64,000 bases of DNA from Escherichia phage CMSTMSU, in sequence record MH494197.1. One strand, written 5' to 3'. Made by a program: the position numbers and the translations under genes. Positions 3,348 through 58,748 of the stretch are shown piece by piece. Positions within the stretch are counted from its first letter, which is position 1. Each line of letters starts with the position of its first letter. The notes below the pieces were generated by a model. It was not told where the DNA came from. It worked only from the letters and a program-made list of their open reading frames with translations, and did not search any database.

Positions 3348-3375
3348 ATTATACGCTTTTAAACTTAGTTTGCAA
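3348..3375 (-). promoter_or_regulatory. sigma70-type early promoter (minus: TTGCAA-16-TATAAT)
   Basis: Conserved element copy; followed by GGGTGAAATAGTTCCCC leader. Confidence 0.55.
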
Positions 3376-3576
3376 CTTTATTAAACTTATTTGTAATTTT
3401 GCACTGTCAGCCCATACTGTGAAACGATGCATATTATCCCATGCATCTTGTTTTAAATTTAAACTGTGCAATTCCTCAGTAGTTGCTATCCCCATTGGCT
3501 TACTACACACCGCGAAATTTTTCTCCATGTACTGATAAACCATCGTTAAATCATTTGAGATCATTACATGGATCAT
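3349..3576 (-). CDS. hypothetical protein (75 aa)
   Basis: Track ORF on the early strand; a 47-codon ORF (3599..3742) upstream may be the same gene split by a frame break. Confidence 0.35.
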   Translation of the reverse strand: MIHVMISNDLTMVYQYMEKNFAVCSKPMGIATTEELHSLNLKQDAWDNMHRFTVWADSAKLQISLIKLQTKFKSV

Positions 3577-3774
3577 TGAATCAGCTATGAAGTAGCGTAT
3601 TGTTCACGCACGGCAACGGTTCCCGATAAGCTGTAAATGTGAATTTTACAGTTTCAGCCGGAAGACCTTTCATTTCACGGAAGTTAACCGTGTTAAGCAT
3701 GATTTTATTGATTTGAGTCGCCATCGTTTTAATCTCTTAATGTAGCGGGAAGTGTTCCTGCCTCGATGTAAAAC

Positions 3775-3799
3775 ATTATACGCTTTTATCAGTATGCAA
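3775..3799 (-). promoter_or_regulatory. sigma70-type early promoter variant (13-bp spacer)
   Basis: Conserved GATGTAAAACATTATACGCTTTT element with ATGCAA in place of TTGCAA. Confidence 0.35.
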
Positions 3800-4063
3800 G
3801 TACTTTCTACAAATACTTTTAAAATAGTTTTCTCTATATAGGGAACTATTATTCAGTACTGCAACCATCCGTGGGAACTATCTTTCTATAGTAGTACTAT
3901 TATTCAGTACTGAATCAATCCACCAAATCATCCTGATACCCGTAAAACGGCCTCAGACGCATTCTAACGCATTAATACACCTAAGCTATACATTTGCACC
4001 ATTCCAATCTTGGCTGGGCCGTTTAAACGCGTTAAATTATTTTCAATTATTTTGTTTTAGCTA

Positions 4064-4090
4064 TTGACTCAGTACTAAAAAGCGTATAAT
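4064..4090 (+). promoter_or_regulatory. sigma70-type promoter, plus strand (TTGACT-15-TATAAT)
   Basis: Consensus hexamers; downstream transcript has 9-bp inverted repeat AGGGTGCGG...CCGCACCCT and no long ORF. Confidence 0.45.
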
Positions 4091-4096
4091 TACACA

Positions 4097-4270
4097 TAGA
4101 CGCGAGAAAGGAAACCAGAGGGTGCGGAATTACGCCCAAAATTCAAGATATAAAAAAAGGATACACCGCACCCTAGCAGGTTAACGCACTTTCTAGTACT
4201 GAAATATAGTAACATAGTCCGCTGATAGCAAGCAATTAAAACTTTTTCATCCGGTATTGCTTTATTTTTC
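4097..4270 (+). ncRNA. candidate small RNA
   Basis: No ORF between promoter 4064..4090 and stem AGCAAT..ATTGCT followed by TTATTTTT; contains TACGCCCAAAATTC motif. Confidence 0.2.
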
Positions 4271-4284
4271 CAGTACTGTATAAT
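4257..4284 (+). promoter_or_regulatory. promoter, plus strand (TTGCTT-16-TATAAT)
   Basis: ATTGCTTTA upstream also matches my recollection of the T4 MotA-box core; TATAAT at 4279-4284. Confidence 0.4.
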
Positions 4285-4379
4285 AGTTCCATCGTCGAGA
4301 AAGACTCAGCCCACCGTATAGTTACGCCCAAAATTCAGTACTGAAAATTTTAAAAATATCCGTCCGTGCGCGTTGTTCC

Positions 4380-4640
4380 CCCAGTTTATAAGATAATGAT
4401 TCCAGACTCCAGAACGGTTCATCCCACGCGGTAGGGGAACTATTGGAAAACAAAATAAAATTTTGATTTAGCCGTCTATACTTCCAGACGTGTAACCATC
4501 TAGCCGTTTAGCTGTCCAAACGTCAGCCATCCAGCCATCCAGAAATCTAGCCGTTTAGCCGTCCAGATGGATAGCCATTTCCAGACTTCTGAGGGCTAGA
4601 CATATCTACGTCCAAAATCCATCCGTGGTAACTACGCCCA
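4380..4640. repeat. cluster of short direct repeats (TCCAGA; TAGCCGTTTAGCYGTCCA)
   Basis: TCCAGA five times and TAGCCGTTTAGC(C/T)GTCCA twice in ~200 bp; locally GC-richer; no ORF. Confidence 0.5.
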
Positions 4641-4977: not shown

Positions 4978-5189
4978 TAGCTTTCTTTCATTATTCAGTA
5001 CTGATATTCTTGAGAACTACCCGACTACAAACATCATTATATCCCACAAATCATAAACGTCCCAACGTAAATTTCAACTTTCGAAGATCCAACTTTATTT
5101 CATAGGTACTCCAAAATTTTAGGATCGAGATTTAGGATGGAGTACTAACCAACTTTTGCTGAGCTCTGGATATTAAGGTGAAAGTAATA

Positions 5190-5500
5190 ATTCAGTAATT
5201 AATCATTGGTGATTACTTTTGATTACATTTGATGTAATTTGCAAAATGGAAAAGGAGCTTGAAACTAGTACGGCAGACTTCCTCTGCCTACTAGGTGCTG
5301 GTTTCATCTATCGGAGGGAAATGGATTAACCTTAGCAATACGTAACTGAATACGTTCTTGATTAAACGTGCACATTCCTGTACTCTATTACACTCTAGTA
5401 CACTCTAGTACTCAATACTGATCACTACAATGATTATAAATGATTACTTAAATGTTTATATATGATTACTTATGACTACATATGATTAGGGTTTACTGGG
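5190..5500. repeat. TGATTAC short-repeat cluster with adjacent direct repeat
   Basis: TGATTAC recurs about seven times in two sub-clusters; TACACTCTAGTAC is duplicated in tandem at 5390-5415. Confidence 0.4.
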
Positions 5501-5816
5501 AGAATCTAGTGATCGCATTTGTCCAGCTGAATTTTAACATATATAACATATGTTAAAGCCTGTCCAATGCTTCTGCGGAGCTTCTGTCTATATGTTGAAT
5601 TACTTCCTATATATAAGCATTAACATATAGTAGTACTGATTATGCTGTACATTCTCTTTAATATTATAAGGGTCTATAGCAATCTCGGTACATCTGTTAA
5701 ATGCATATCTATTAAATGCCAGTACTATTATAGATCTAATCCATGCTTGGTCAGTCGGTGGTAGTTTACTTATATAGTACTCTTTATAGTTTTTATGTTC
5801 TGCATAGTATACCTTA

Positions 5817-44936: not shown

Positions 44937-45239
44937 TTAGTGCTTCATGTAGTGCACGGAATGCTGCGTGTACTGTTGCCTTGAAGTGCTCTTTAGAGTC
45001 ACTTTAAGTTTCTCAATGATATCACGTACATAAATTGGATGTTCTTCAAATACACGATTCAATTCATGGCCTAGTGATTCTAAACTGAAAGCTTTTTCGC
45101 GTGAAGGACGATCATGTGCAAGACTTTGGTCAGGCTTTAGTAGACCTAGTGAATCAAGATACTTATGCTTATGTGCATTATCAATTCCAGAAATATCCAC
45201 ATCATGCGATGGATCTTTCTTATTCCATTTATCAACCAT
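44937..45239 (-). CDS. hypothetical charged protein (100 aa)
   Basis: Track ORF; contains YLDSLGLL, as in 42850..44014. Confidence 0.5.
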   Translation of the reverse strand: MVDKWNKKDPSHDVDISGIDNAHKHKYLDSLGLLKPDQSLAHDRPSREKAFSLESLGHELNRVFEEHPIYVRDIIEKLKVTLKSTSRQQYTQHSVHYMKH

Positions 45240-45354
45240 TTCATACTCCTTAAAGAGATAAATTACTTTAATATTTATACTTCATGTGCTGTTTATTTCT
45301 ACAGACACTTAAGATTATATCACGTAAGAAATGGTTGTCCCAAAGTCAAATCAG

Positions 45355-54014: not shown

Positions 54015-54230
54015 AGTTAATTCCTCATTTAATTTAAAGGGCGGGAACGCAGTGACGAGTACGATTATGCTGTCTTTCCTTTCACTGCATTCCCTTTGAT
54101 ATAAACATTATACAGTACTGATATCTTATGTCAAGTATTAATCACCAAAAATCATCAGATACCCAAACCAACCCACACAGATGACTAAGCTAACAATACC
54201 AAAGATAATCTCTAAAGTCATGTTACATCC

Positions 54231-54431
54231 TTAATCAATGATTTTATATTCACGATGACCATAGAATCCAGCCTCAAGGATGCGATTACCGTCAGCATCT
54301 TCTAAATCCCACCCACGGGATGTTTCGGCAATAATAGTCATGATGTGACCTCTTGGGAAAATTCCACTCAAGGTGGATACATCCTCAAGTAATTGAACCT
54401 TCTTACCAACATTCGAATTTGATTTAAACAT
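54231..54431 (-). CDS. hypothetical protein (66 aa)
   Basis: Track ORF. Confidence 0.4.
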   Translation of the reverse strand: MFKSNSNVGKKVQLLEDVSTLSGIFPRGHIMTIIAETSRGWDLEDADGNRILEAGFYGHREYKIID

Positions 54432-54635
54432 ACTTTACCCTTATTCGTTGATTACGTCAAGTACTTTGTCCAGTTTCTTACCAATACTATCCTTTGGTTT
54501 ATCACTATTCTGGAATACATTAGTACTGCAATACTCAGGACGGGTATTAGGAAACTTCTCGTTCATCCGAGTGACCATATACACCAAGAATGATACCTAC
54601 GATAAGAATGATGATTTGCATGATATATCCTCTAA

Positions 54636-55428
54636 TTAAATTACATACGGTTTATAGTAATGAATCTCGTTTGCGATTGCAGTGAAAACTTTATTATTAA
54701 ATCTTTCACCATAATCACGAAGTGATTCACCTTCTTCGCTTTCAATGAAGTAATTATATACTGGTAGACGTGCGGTGTCAACACCTATAAATGATTTCAT
54801 GTAAATTTGTACTAAACGATTCATTCCTTCATTTAAGCATTGCACCTCAAAGTGCTTGATACCTTTGTCTAAGTGTTTGAATGCATTCATGATACCACGT
54901 TTAAAATCACGCTGCATAGTACTGAATAGATTCTCAGGAACACTGTAATAGGTGACATTGATTTAAGAATGTATGTATCTTTAGCATTCTTAATATACTC
55001 AATAAAGCAGTAGTTAACGTCAGGCTCGATAGAACGATCAGCGTTATGATACCAGTGTTTAAACTCACTGTACTCAGCGAACTTATGCTGGCGTAATGCG
55101 TTACAATCTTCACACAGTGCAGTCATGTTCTCTTTATCATTACCGCCCTGAAGACAGTCCAGTACATTATGGTCTAACGTCATGCGTACAAGGCGTTTCC
55201 TTTAAGTACATAAGGTCTGAATTTATAACGGTCTTTAGTACTGTGTTTATGTAAAGTGAATACCACATTGGATTCACCACAACAATCACATTTAAAGCCA
55301 TCACGTGACATTACATGAATGAGTTTTCGAGTATTTGGGCCGAACTCAGATTTAGTAATGTTGCCAACAATTTCTGATGGGTCGTAGTATTTTGAATTCC
55401 GGCGAATCAATTCATCTATAGTGCTCAT
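54636..55428 (-). CDS. HNH endonuclease (frame breaks)
   Basis: Track ORFs 55180..55428, 54887..55183, 54636..54917 are consecutive; contain KCDCCGES...HKH and DHNVLDCLQGGNDKENMTALCEDCN. Confidence 0.55.
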
Positions 55429-55964
55429 TTTATATTATTCCTTCTATGTTACAACCTATAATTATTTTTGTAACTTCGATAACTCTTACCAAATGGTATC
55501 CGTGAAAAAGTTAAAACCATACATTTGTGCTAATGCATCGGCTTCAGATTTTGCACGGATACATGATAGATATAGTTCTCGTATATCGTCATCCAACGAT
55601 GCTTGTTTCTCGTCATTGATAACAATAGAACGAATCTCAAAACGAACACCATAACTCATTTAGTTTGTCCAACAATTAGTTTCTCTCTAGTATTACTATT
55701 GTAACACCACATTAATTCTTCACCAACTGTTCTAAGTGAAACGCTGTTTACTTGTTCATAAGTACTGTCACGTACTGCAATGCATTGATTCATTGAATTC
55801 ATTGGGGTGATTTGTACACCAGATTGTGGTGAAAGAGCAATAATTAAAAGATTACTGAATTCATTAGATATTCCTTAGTGGTTAATCATCCATCTCTTCG
55901 AGATGTCTGTTCGCTTCTAATACTACGTATTCTACGCGAATGAATCATAACTGTCAAGGACTTT

Positions 55965-56490
55965 TAATATTGACGGGATTTGAGGAAGGATTTTTCTTCC
56001 CCACATGGAGGGAATTTGACGCTGATGGTATCAGAGCTATTGCATTGAAGATTACTCATAATGAGTGCGAAAGCGGGTCATCCTGTTTCTCTCTACTTCA
56101 GTTTCATATGACGGTCTACACTTTTAAACATAGTGTATCTTCATTAAGTATCTATGCAATCAAATACTTAATGTGAGTACTCAAATTTTGGACGCAACTT
56201 TCCTGTACAAAATTCGATAACTCTCCTTAGATAATTCGTAAGGTGTTATCCTTATATGTCTATCGAGGAACCATCAGCTATCCTAACGTGGTTCTTTATA
56301 CAGCCGCATTGCCGTGAGGGGTTCAAACTATGCCCACATCTAACGGGTTTCTTTTGCTGTTCGCTACAATGAAAAGCTCATCTATCCTTTACATTTTCAA
56401 GTGAAGTAGGGGAAGATTGTCAGTACCAGTACTGTCATTGTGATTGTACATAGATCATTGTATCACCATTAATAAATTTGTCCCATAAAA
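55965..56490 (-). ncRNA. candidate structured non-coding region
   Basis: ~500 bp with no minus-strand ORF over 30 codons between terminator 56488..56515 and a TTGACA-17-TAGAAT promoter at about 55935-55963; locally GC-richer; 9-bp stem CATTAAGTA..TACTTAATG. Confidence 0.25.
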
Positions 56491-56515
56491 AGGCTGACCG
56501 AAGTCAACCCTTTAA
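56488..56515 (-). terminator. hairpin terminator after the sigma factor gene
   Basis: Copy of the recurring GGGTTGAC-TTCG-GTCAGCC hairpin with T-run; no TATAAT here. Confidence 0.5.
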
Positions 56516-56517
56516 TC

Positions 56518-57480
56518 TTAAAAATCTTCGAACTCGTAACCTTGCATCTTCACCATCTTACGCAGTCGTTCCATTGCTTCAGAGTACTTACGGTGCAATG
56601 AAGAACGAGCAGTCATGACCTTACCCTTCTCATCTTCAAAACCACTCTCAATGATTTCTCGTAGCGTTTCTGGTTCAGAATAAGAACCAATACCATGTAC
56701 ACGTTCAATCAATTCACGGTCTTTGGCAGATAGGTTACTCATCATTTCTGCAATACTTTGTACCAGTGGGTACTGACAGTTTCTACGCCTAAGTTGTAAT
56801 CAGGTTCAACTGAAGTAACAATGTCAGATAATGTACTTTCTGAATCATTACTCATTTTCATATTCAATGCTACATAAGTGTTATTGTAAGTTAGACAATT
56901 CTTAACGTGTTGAATCTCAATACCAGTCTCTTTTGACACCATCTCAGGAGTTGGGTATTTACCATGTTTCCTTTGATACTCTTCTACACAACGTTTCACA
57001 TAAATGTTATTAACACTCATATAACGTGGGAAATGCACTAGATAATTAGCATCTGCACTTTCGTTATAGATTGTCATGTACACAGTTGTTGTTGCATATG
57101 TAATGAACTTAACATTTTGGTAGTGTCGAACGTATGAATTGCTCGCATTAAACCTTCAACACCATAAGAAATCTTATCTTCAAATGGGATGAAACATGTA
57201 CACTTACGTGCAACACTTACTACCATTGGATAGTTGTAGCGAACCAAAAGGTCAATATTCTTTTCAACGTCAATACCATCACGCACTGCTTGGATGAGCA
57301 TTTCATTCGTTATCCCTTTAGGGCGAGTTAAGCTGATACCTGTTTTGGTTTCTCAAACTTGTGACCGTCATGTTCTTCTTCTTCGACGGAATCAAGAGCC
57401 TCTAATACGTTGACTTCTTCACTAGCAAAACACTCATCCAGTACTTCTTCAGAAATTGCATTTAAATCAAGCTTTTTCAC
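56518..57480 (-). CDS. sigma-70 family sigma factor (frame breaks)
   Basis: Track ORFs 57074..57301, 56742..57083, 56518..56745 plus a GTG-initiated N-terminal piece behind GGAGAAG; region-2-like YGVEGLMRAIHTFD, region-4-like LSAKDRELIERVHGIG...TLREI...ARSSLHRKYSEAMERLRK. Confidence 0.6.
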
Positions 57481-57602
57481 TTACTTCTCCTAATGAATGA
57501 AATCAAAAACGGTATACATTAATATTATCATCGGTATAGATATCATGGTTATGAACATCCATGAAGGTATCAAATACCTTATCAAGAAGAGTATTATACT
57601 CT

Positions 57603-57860
57603 TCATGTACTGCTATCAAGCATGTATTCACCACCACTACCCATAAAGAATGTATAATCATTATGGAGATAATCAATCTTCTTGGTAAACTTACCCTTAT
57701 TAACGATTAAGTGAATGATGTAATCTTTTGACACAAGAACACAGTGACAACTCGCCTTGCGGTCTGGTATCACAGTCTCTTGTGAAATCAAGTATCTCAG
57801 TACTTTGTTAATTTCACTAACCTCACCGCAAGCACTAAACAGTCGGTCGTGTACATACAA
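57603..57860 (-). CDS. hypothetical protein (85 aa)
   Basis: Track ORF. Confidence 0.35.
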   Translation of the reverse strand: MYVHDRLFSACGEVSEINKVLRYLISQETVIPDRKASCHCVLVSKDYIIHLIVNKGKFTKKIDYLHNDYTFFMGSGGEYMLDSST

Positions 57861-58416
57861 TGTTTTTGTGAAACTACACCATAACTAAGTTTTGGTTTCA
57901 ACGGGAATAGGTTCAAAATGAACGTTGCTCAGTTGATGTCACTTTTGAATCAGTAAGTAATACTCCCAAGCGTTTATCAATATAAACAGTCGTCATATTA
58001 AACCTTATCTAAAATTTATCATAGATATAATATTCTTTATCGTTGAATACATTAATTCCGGATCGAAGCGTTGAAGTGTATTCATGTATAATGAACTTTT
58101 AAATAAAAATACAATGCAACAAATTCAGATATATGCATATTCTTTTTATTATTACATAAATTCTTTAGCATTTTAATGCTATCAAAATCATCTTTATCAT
58201 ATCTGTACTGGTAAAATTATATCTATTGAACTGACACTCATAGATACGAAGTGCCATTATGTCAATACATGCTTTAGATTTACAGTACTTATTCAATACG
58301 TCATAATCACCCACACATAATGCTACAAAGATTTTATGCAAGCGTAGCTTTACCTTCAATAGTATAATAACCAAAGAACTTACTGATTAAGTAATGTATA
58401 AATCTAAGCATTGGAT

Positions 58417-58674
58417 TTAGAATTTCTCCGAAATTACCAGTGTATCATCATAGTCATCAGCAACCGTATTCAGTACTTCCAAATTACTTTCACCAGAAAT
58501 ACTTTGTACTTCGTTCAAAAGATAGTTTAGATCAACTTTAGTTACTTTTTCTGAATCAAACACACAGAAAGTCAATTCAGCGTTTGGACAGATCTTCTTC
58601 AGATTATCAGCAACAACTTGTTTGAAGTTAAAAGATGGGAAGCAACGGTTAACTGCAACGAGAATAGATTTCAT
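58417..58674 (-). CDS. hypothetical protein (85 aa)
   Basis: Track ORF. Confidence 0.45.
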   Translation of the reverse strand: MKSILVAVNRCFPSFNFKQVVADNLKKICPNAELTFCVFDSEKVTKVDLNYLLNEVQSISGESNLEVLNTVADDYDDTLVISEKF

Positions 58675-58748
58675 AATGTTTTCCTTTTTAGCTGATAATT
58701 AAATTAGGAGCACATTGTACTCCATGTTATTGGTTAAGTCAAATACTT

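Follow-up and report, generated by a model that had tools for sequence, protein, structure and literature searches.

The question raised by this locus is why a gene-dense part of a phage genome should contain a long gap between open reading frames (ORFs). We analyzed a stretch of 64,000 nucleotides (nt) from Escherichia phage CMSTMSU (sequence record MH494197.1), referred to below as the window, in which the genes around the locus lie on the minus strand. The gap covers about 715 nt (55803-56517), from the stop of the sigma-factor ORF at 56518 to the start of the next gene at 55802. An earlier, sequence-only reading had placed it at 55965-56490; the gap itself is real, and its true span is wider. 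Comparison with homologous loci shows the ORF-free segment to be a predicted gene for a non-coding RNA of about 485-490 nt, on the minus strand and with its own putative promoter (56484-56457). The same comparison shows a predicted fold of at least 13 helices, with two multi-helix domains, a pseudoknot and more than 100 invariant, mostly unpaired nucleotides. We assign an RNA gene because of the identity across genera, the full-length nhmmer matches, the covariation, an excess of G·U pairs, the conserved promoter and the lack of any conserved ORF. Among the candidates that the sequence-only reading had offered, the RNA is the one that held, as a stand-alone and highly structured non-coding RNA gene.

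A gap of this size is not in itself unusual for an AT-rich window. Its only minus-strand ORF of at least 25 amino acids has 31 codons (55964..56059), which bears out the earlier statement that no long frame lies on the transcribed strand; the plus strand has ORFs of 78 and 38 amino acids, neither of which is conserved in homologs. The G+C content does rise inside the gap, as had been claimed, but modestly (0.38-0.41, against about 0.33-0.36 in the flanks). What takes the gap beyond chance is its nucleotide identity of about 69% to phages with which overall genome similarity is only about 23-29%. Distant BLAST searches matched positions 55960-56411, at 68-70% identity, to DNA that carries no annotation in phages from other genera, namely Pectobacterium phage CBB, Cronobacter phage GAP32, Xanthomonas phage XbC2, Serratia phage BF, Yersinia phage fHe-Yen9-04, Salmonella phages Munch and 7t3, Klebsiella phage fENko-Kae01 and several Erwinia phages. 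Whole-genome similarity is only about 29% to the Munch group and about 23% to Eneladusvirus (PMC13070987, Table 2). The closest match to the studied region is Escherichia phage BF17 (98% identical), in whose record the equivalent gap is annotated with a length of 660 nt, followed by 121Q, PBECO4, G17 and other Asteriusvirus jumbo phages of about 350-380 kb (88-93%). By sequence, the window is from an Asteriusvirus-like (121Q/PBECO4/BF17) jumbo coliphage.

Homopolymer runs in the window have lost single nucleotides at many places relative to BF17 (indels were listed for 54095-58700). The sigma-factor gene, a single coding sequence of 969 bp in BF17, is split by deletions into four ORFs in the window (56518-57480, minus strand), and an HNH endonuclease gene (54636-55428, minus strand) is split into three by homopolymer deletions. 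Judged by this comparison, the splits are most likely sequencing errors and not pseudogenes. Five 1-nt homopolymer deletions fall inside the RNA gene, with indels relative to BF17 at 55988, 55999, 56010 and 56225, so that the window copy is about 5 nt short of the 490 nt found in BF17. The sequence-only reading had allowed that a corrected sequence might reveal an ordinary gene. Homopolymer errors are indeed present, yet 35 error-free homologs have no ORF conserved in position, frame or strand.

The window copy (55968..56452, minus strand), delimited by the alignments and the covariation, matches the family model over positions 4-490 (nhmmer E = 4.9e-122). An alignment of 12 homologs has a TGnTATAAT -10 element followed by about 490 nt of alternating invariant and variable blocks, with an abrupt end at ...CAAAUCUCGUCAG. 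Our main alignment of 35 sequences, which spans paralogs and genera, has 103 invariant columns and a further 39 that are nearly invariant. RNAalifold predicted 79 pairs from 11 sequences, 45 of them with compensatory double changes. Thirteen helices (68 pairs, pseudoknot included) could be specified in register in the 35-sequence alignment. Standard pairs occupy 94.8% of their cells, compared with 38-46% in controls made by sliding the 3' partner 1-3 columns, and changes on both sides are found in 48 of the 68 pairs. The covariation score is 0.497, compared with 0.07-0.12 for the slid helices, and none of 500 shuffles reached the observed value. Four hairpins (HP1, HP5, HP8 and HP10) are too variable in length for column counts, yet they fold in each sequence inspected. 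This covariation analysis, which had been named beforehand as a check, strongly supports an RNA fold. The stable stems of the sequence-only reading are thus borne out by covariation, while their thermodynamics are weak (z = -1.8). When tertiary pairs were sought in a permissive all-versus-all covariation screen, G·U-compatible noise swamped the result. RNAalifold proposed long-range pairs (UGA/UCA and GAC/GUC), which involve invariant bases and so lie beyond the reach of covariation.

Read on the minus strand, the paired positions contain 140 G·U against 40 A·C combinations. This excess, together with the orientation of the promoter, places the RNA on the minus strand; by themselves, thermodynamic z-scores do not tell the strands apart. 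The same asymmetry disfavors a DNA binding platform, another of the earlier candidates.

The architecture is described here from 5' to 3' on the minus strand. The RNA begins with the conserved strand ACAAUYCUG..UGA, followed by the variable HP1, and in many copies a hairpin lies right at the predicted 5' end. HP2 (56382..56409; helices 1-2, with 6 of 8 pairs compensatory) bears the conserved loop GAAAAUGUA and is followed by the near-invariant junction GAUGAG (56377-56382). HP3, a small hairpin with a UUCAAUC loop, lies between this junction and domain A (56300..56360). In domain A, H4 (ACAGC/GCUGU) encloses H4b (CCGU/ACGG) and the variable HP5; helices 4-5 are 100% paired, and the domain carries the invariant strands AAAGAAACCCGU and CACGGCAAUGCGGC. 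HP6 (GAACCA/UGGUUC; 56268..56294) has a variable loop and a helix (helix 6) in which all six pairs are compensatory, with up to four pair types per position. The junction GAUAGACAUAUAAGG, made of invariant columns, runs into HP7 (UAAG/CUUA, helix 7; 56239..56264). Next come the invariant AAGGGAG, which reads AAGGAG in the window copy through the loss of one G, and the long HP8 (56175..56230; local fold -15.7 kcal/mol), with the apical module AAUUUUG-UACA...GCGUCC-AAAAUUUG. HP9 (56142..56173) combines a 10-bp stem, CAUUAAGUAU/AUACUUAAUG, compensatory at all ten pairs (helix 8), with a conserved 12-nt loop, UUGAUUGCAUAG. HP10 lies between HP9 and the GACCGU of domain B.

Domain B (56046..56116) comprises the invariant GACCGU and a pseudoknotted region; its helices 9-12 are 98-100% paired, and 14 of their 18 pairs are compensatory. 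The pseudoknot, first seen by a stack search, joins GUCAU (56112-56108) to AUGAC (56081-56077) in the HP12 loop, and across copies it changes from GUUGU/ACAAC to GUCAU/AUGAC or GUUGC/GCAAC. H11 (56100-56096 with 56050-56046) encloses HP12 and HP13. Toward the 3' end stands a C-run/G-run hairpin (55993..56014; helix 13), UUCAUCCCCC-UGC-GGGGGGAUGAA in most copies, with many U·G pairs; its G strand is invariant and its C strand alternates between C and U. Two copies of a CGUCAA/CGUCAG motif flank this hairpin in the alignment (55970..56021; motifs at 56021-56016 and 55975-55970), and the second, a CGUCAR that follows the tail, is where conservation ends sharply on the 3' side. The invariant G-run of the Asteriusvirus copy has an alternative pairing partner, a downstream C(C)CUUCC (55977-55992), which the minimum-energy fold prefers. 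The alternative pairing, as modeled, may constitute a conformational switch.

One module, AAUUUUG-UACAAUAUAGAUCCGUCC-AAAAUUUG, belongs to HP8 in certain paralog groups but lies within HP13 in others; it occupies columns 345-380 and 516-553, respectively, of the 35-sequence alignment. It behaves as a relocatable tertiary-contact element, as is found in large folded RNAs.

The 3' end of the transcript may not be uniform. At least 13 of 35 copies have a terminator-like hairpin with U6-8 just after the first CGUCAG, upstream of the conserved G-run hairpin and tail, but a canonical terminator within 160 nt past the conserved 3' end is present in only 2 of 57. It is therefore likely that short and long isoforms exist or that the 3' end is processed. 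Mimas- and Eneladusvirus have a long conserved hairpin, GAUUUUCUUGCnGCGAAGCGnAAGAAAAUC, before the next gene, about 70-110 nt past the RNA 3' end in CBB and likewise in GAP32, Kaldavass, XbC2, Serratia BF and Yen9-04. It could be an RNase III-type processing site that frees the RNA from the downstream messenger RNA (mRNA).

The sequence-only reading had bounded the segment by a terminator after the sigma-factor gene and by the next promoter, and both are real. The intrinsic terminator (56487..56510, minus strand), which forms the upstream boundary of the RNA locus, consists of the hairpin GGUUGAC-UUCG-GUCAGCC (56492-56509) and a U5 run (56487-56491), and a terminator is annotated at the equivalent place in the UE-S1 record. 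The downstream boundary is a strong sigma-70-type promoter (TTGACA-17-TAGAAT; 55957-55929, minus strand) that matches at 11 of 12 positions in the promoter scan, so that the downstream protein genes do not depend on the RNA promoter. Overlooked in that reading was a second promoter, right after the terminator and pointing into the ORF-free segment. This predicted promoter of the RNA gene (56457..56484, minus strand; promoter scan) has a -35-like GGGACA (56484-56479), a 16-nt spacer and a TG-extended -10 element, TGATACAAT (56465-56457). Upstream, every paralog examined has a TGnTATAAT -10 element that follows a GGGACA or TGAAAC. The authors of the CBB genome study described a "divergent RpoD-like" promoter class with a TGAAACG -35 element, found mainly before DNA-synthesis genes (PMC5259590); by its sequence, the RNA promoter belongs to this class. 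The sole other exact GGGACA-N16-TGATATAAT promoter in the window (45314-45341, minus strand) drives an ordinary gene of 100 amino acids (44937-45239) that has a strong Shine-Dalgarno sequence, and the promoter class is therefore common to protein genes.

The terminator is itself part of a repeated module. A near-identical GGGUUGACUUCGGUCAGCC with a U-run recurs at least eight times in the early region, often followed by a promoter (36632, 37347, 41798, 42477, 44051, 44829, 48404 and 56487-56534), and this terminator/promoter module was the sole repeat recovered by self-BLAST of the window. An almost identical terminator is present in CBB, GAP32, Serratia BF and Yen9-04, which is unusually deep conservation for a terminator.

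The RNA gene is present once in the window, but it belongs to a multicopy family. When a 20-nt invariant motif was scanned against IMG/VR, it was found at three separate places per genome of about 350 kb, and nhmmer identified these as full-length paralogs (model positions 4-490, E 1e-143 to 1e-44). Three GC-rich matches of this first scan were due to chance, and looser motif scans gave mostly chance matches but did find extra copies in Yen9-04. It had been supposed that the four places per record returned by BLAST were the repeated terminator/promoter module only; the motif scan disposed of this by finding true paralogs outside the window. CBB has copies at about 32.3 kb (plus strand), 258.1 kb (plus strand) and 336.4 kb (minus strand), and 121Q at about 90.3, 192.8 and 326.6 kb, with a fourth place given by BLAST; Yen9-04 has five. 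Among the related jumbo phages sampled, full-length copies occur in Asterius-, Mimas- and Eneladusvirus, the Munch group and metagenomic contigs. The copy set comprises 76 full-length sequences, 59 of them unique, and includes a metagenome scan (39 loci, mostly on contigs of 350-370 kb). No match to the RNA was found in a scan of 100,044 bacterial and archaeal genomes. On this sequence sampling, the family is carried by Rak2-like jumbo phages of enterobacteria, each of whose genomes has at least three copies at dispersed sites. In public records the locus is blank or is covered by small "hypothetical protein" coding sequences, and UE-S1 marks part of it as a repeat_region. Such annotations on the RNA gene are found in GAP32 (JN882285, 341071-341184), Kaldavass (PQ464595, 44307-44887), WPEC3/WPEC5 and UE-S1 (ON568341, 80759-80916). 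The small coding sequences are probably spurious, because their ORFs are not conserved.

Several of the RNA loci are syntenic across genera, in that the same neighboring gene families flank corresponding copies. Most copies are followed by co-oriented gene arrays; a Munch-type copy has convergent genes downstream. A comparison of neighbors across loci found no protein gene consistently adjacent to the copies. A conserved protein partner had been suspected from a gene of about 265 amino acids after the RNA, but the 264-amino-acid protein of BF17, CBB_524, CBB_70 and CBB_69 are unrelated. In Asteriusvirus the 264-amino-acid protein, encoded two genes downstream (54636-55428, minus strand), matches PHROG 35175 (E = 5e-149) and is an HNH homing endonuclease. 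Genes of this family are found upstream of a different paralog group elsewhere, and near about 12 of the 59 copies in all; the conserved RNA genes may serve the endonuclease as homing targets. The shuffling of HP5 types among paralog groups suggests gene conversion.

The family appears to be new. Rfam 15 gave no match at the gathering threshold over the whole window and nothing credible on 55700-56650 with E allowed up to 10 or on six divergent paralog loci with E allowed up to 1, so that the Rfam scan proposed by the sequence-only reading matched no family on either window or locus; the ROOL and GOLLD covariance models were among those without a match. ARAGORN found no transfer RNA (tRNA) or transfer-messenger RNA (tmRNA) in the window, and no tRNA in the flanks of 51 family loci (the nearest is 16 kb away, in CBB). 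RNase P RNA, tmRNA and 6S RNA were rejected, as their Rfam models were unmatched and ARAGORN was negative for tmRNA. A by-eye likeness of short motifs to E. coli RNase P RNA, the M1 RNA (ACAGAACCCGGCUUA-like, AGAUGA and UAAGGGUGA), was not collinear and had no model match. A group I intron was likewise set aside, since Intron_gpI was unmatched at E up to 10 and no gene is interrupted; by-eye P/R/S elements of such an intron (GAUAGACA and AUAUAG) are short enough to occur by chance and had no covariance-model match. HEARO, or IscB omega-RNA, which directly precedes and overlaps an IscB-type (RuvC+HNH) ORF, gave no match either; the nearby HNH protein is a homing-type enzyme encoded two genes away and found close to only about 12 of 59 copies. 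A CsrA site, ACAGGAUGA, in the HP12 loop was discarded because its GGA is not conserved in other copies, as were a mini-ORF after the Shine-Dalgarno-like AAGGGAG (MH(Q/R)(F/I)CTI in CBB, GAP32, Serratia BF and Yen9-04), absent from other copies, and a palindromic UGUACA loop considered as a kissing-dimer site, which is not conserved. When the literature was searched by topic, phage name and sequence string, the RNA was not found described anywhere, the 2025-2026 papers on the UE-S1 and fEgEco12 genomes included. On all tests available here the RNA family is new: none of the 4,227 families in Rfam is related to it, and no published description was found.

Bacteria and phages rarely have large, intricately folded RNAs in which many unpaired nucleotides are invariant, and historically such RNAs have proved to be ribozymes, ribonucleoprotein cores or, lately, RNA-only nano-assemblies. 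The RNA described here probably does something important. We give an even chance to the reading that it is stable and compactly folded and acts in trans, as a ribonucleoprotein scaffold or a ribozyme-like RNA. It would then be an "ornate" RNA of the GOLLD/ROOL kind rather than an mRNA leader, and the several copies would supply dosage or slightly different isoforms. A stand-alone role is favored because the Munch-type copy has only convergent genes downstream and because an independent strong promoter follows the window copy. The terminal hairpins and internal terminators suggest a discrete RNA, and the many invariant unpaired bases and the relocated module suggest a precise three-dimensional fold; that no protein gene is consistently adjacent points the same way. 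Several observations weigh against this reading. Our literature search turned up no expression data for phages of this group, and nothing in the analysis identified a partner or a reaction. The thermodynamic z-score is weak on the minus (RNA) strand (-1.8) and better on the plus strand (-3.1). With a terminator close past the 3' end in only 2 of 57 copies, the RNA may stay joined to the downstream mRNA unless it is processed, and dispersed copies suit a role in cis at least as well as one in trans.

The comparison with GOLLD and ROOL is one of kind and not of family. Both have been discussed as candidates for sophisticated biochemistry or self-assembly (bioRxiv 10.1101/2024.12.08.627333). ROOL averages 581 nt, and ROOL and GOLLD often lie beside tRNA genes, in prophages or bacterial genomes (PMC5737381). 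Like them (PMC5737381), the present RNA is large, multi-junction and pseudoknotted, is used by phages and has no obligatory protein gene alongside; in size and fold it is similar in having about 490 nt, at least 13 helices, two domains and a covarying pseudoknot. Unlike them, it lies away from tRNA genes, is absent from the bacterial genomes and prophages scanned, and occurs in one clade of lytic jumbo phages with several paralogs per genome; it also has 103 invariant nucleotides, compared with 10 highly conserved ones in ROOL. PA5oct, a jumbo phage distantly related to the Rak2-like phages, has four non-coding RNAs defined by RNA sequencing (ncRNA001-004, 236-619 nt), two of them very abundant (PMC7318152). 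These differ from the present RNA in that no structure or covariation has been reported for them, and nhmmer found no detectable homolog of it in the first 50 kb of the PA5oct genome, where ncRNA001 and ncRNA002 are encoded. The idea that the RNA is a homolog of ncRNA002, which is of similar size and abundant, was dropped on this result.

It is possible, though doubtful, that the RNA represents a new class of large RNAs, catalytic or self-assembling, that only jumbo phages possess. Its paralogs might, for instance, come together as homo- or hetero-oligomers in a machine made of RNA or ribonucleoprotein, as in the ROOL/GOLLD complexes or the phi29 pRNA ring; if so, an oligomeric RNA machine would be needed for some step of the giant-phage life cycle. 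The phi29 pRNA offers a precedent for such a use, being phage-encoded, structured, trans-acting and an oligomer in a phage-specific machine, but it is a single-copy RNA of 174 nt from another phage lineage and has no detected sequence or structural relation to the present RNA. No T4-type packaging motor is known to require an RNA.

The first alternative to a trans-acting RNA is a cis-acting leader: the element would be the structured 5' part of a long transcript, serving as a processive antiterminator (like HK022 put or EAR) or as a stabilizing or processing element. We consider this unlikely. In its favor, every copy examined is directly downstream of a promoter, 55 of 57 have no terminator within 160 nt past the conserved 3' end, co-oriented gene arrays follow most of them, the region is full of terminators that a modified polymerase could read through, and dispersed copies would suit a per-operon element. 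HK022 put resembles the present RNA in position, in that each directly follows a promoter, heads long co-oriented gene arrays and is present once per transcription unit. These arguments are opposed by the Munch-type copy, which has only convergent genes downstream; by the strong independent promoter between RNA and next gene in the window; by the terminator-like hairpin inside the element in at least 13 of 35 copies; and by downstream genes that are completely different between paralogs. In length, too, the RNA is out of line, as known antiterminator RNAs have 70-120 nt and this one has 490. Compared with put it is 5-7 times larger, has one orthologous copy without co-oriented genes downstream and is followed in the window by a separate promoter.

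Somewhat less likely again is that each copy is a replication origin, whose structured transcript forms a persistent hybrid and primes DNA synthesis near its 3' end. There are several dispersed copies per 350-kb genome, a terminator past the 3' end is rare (2 of 57 copies), and in CBB the promoter class mostly precedes DNA-synthesis genes (PMC5259590). Like ColE1 RNA II (about 550 nt) and the transcripts of T4 oriF and oriG, this transcript is promoter-proximal, is about 500 nt long and has a defined 3' end, with a G-run (an invariant G6) in its 3' part. In ColE1 the G-run stabilizes the RNA-DNA hybrid, and T4 has several origins per genome, of which oriF and oriG use a middle-promoter transcript. 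Yet neither the window copy nor a CBB copy has a switch in GC skew (p = 0.07 and 0.18; no sign change), a result tempered by the fact that T4-like phages may show none anyway, and no antisense regulator of the ColE1 kind was seen. The more than 100 invariant unpaired nucleotides, the conserved loops and the relocated tertiary module exceed the known needs of a primer precursor; the T4 origin transcripts, moreover, are not known to be conserved structured RNAs.

A selfish or mobile element, such as a degenerate group I-type intron or a homing-endonuclease-associated RNA that has spread to several sites, seems very improbable. Several paralogs per genome, the HNH gene two genes downstream in Asteriusvirus, with the same family adjoining another paralog group, and the HP5 shuffling that suggests gene conversion would all fit it. 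The HNH gene is, however, near only about 12 of 59 copies, and the shared neighboring genes across genera indicate no recent mobility. Moreover, no intron model matches even at E = 10, and the complete sigma-factor gene and its terminator precede the RNA promoter with no frame interrupted, so that the intron-like remnant of the sequence-only reading falls as well. That the locus is not an RNA at all, but a protein gene masked by sequencing errors or a protein-binding platform of double-stranded DNA, is scarcely credible: frequent 1-nt homopolymer deletions do break neighboring genes, and the G-run hairpin is near-palindromic as DNA, but 35 homologs from independently sequenced genomes share no ORF, and compensatory changes in 48 of 68 pairs, with G·U exceeding A·C by 3.5:1, are inexplicable by coding or duplex DNA.

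The RNA thus opens three testable roles: a trans-acting RNA machine, a transcription antiterminator and a replication origin. Its host clade of phages of about 350 kb includes culturable E. coli phages (121Q, PBECO4, G17 and phAPEC6), which makes it experimentally approachable. The organization of transcription and replication in giant phages that do not form a nucleus is little known, and the RNA could reveal either its logic or a new RNA machine.

Elsewhere in the window, three further stretches (1194-2750, 3577-4624 and 5057-5816) have no ORF of at least 50 amino acids on either strand. They contain no Rfam match or tRNA, and relatives annotate many tiny ORFs and direct terminal repeats there. 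Short tandem repeats were found at 2182-2226, 3359-3400 and 5382-5488.

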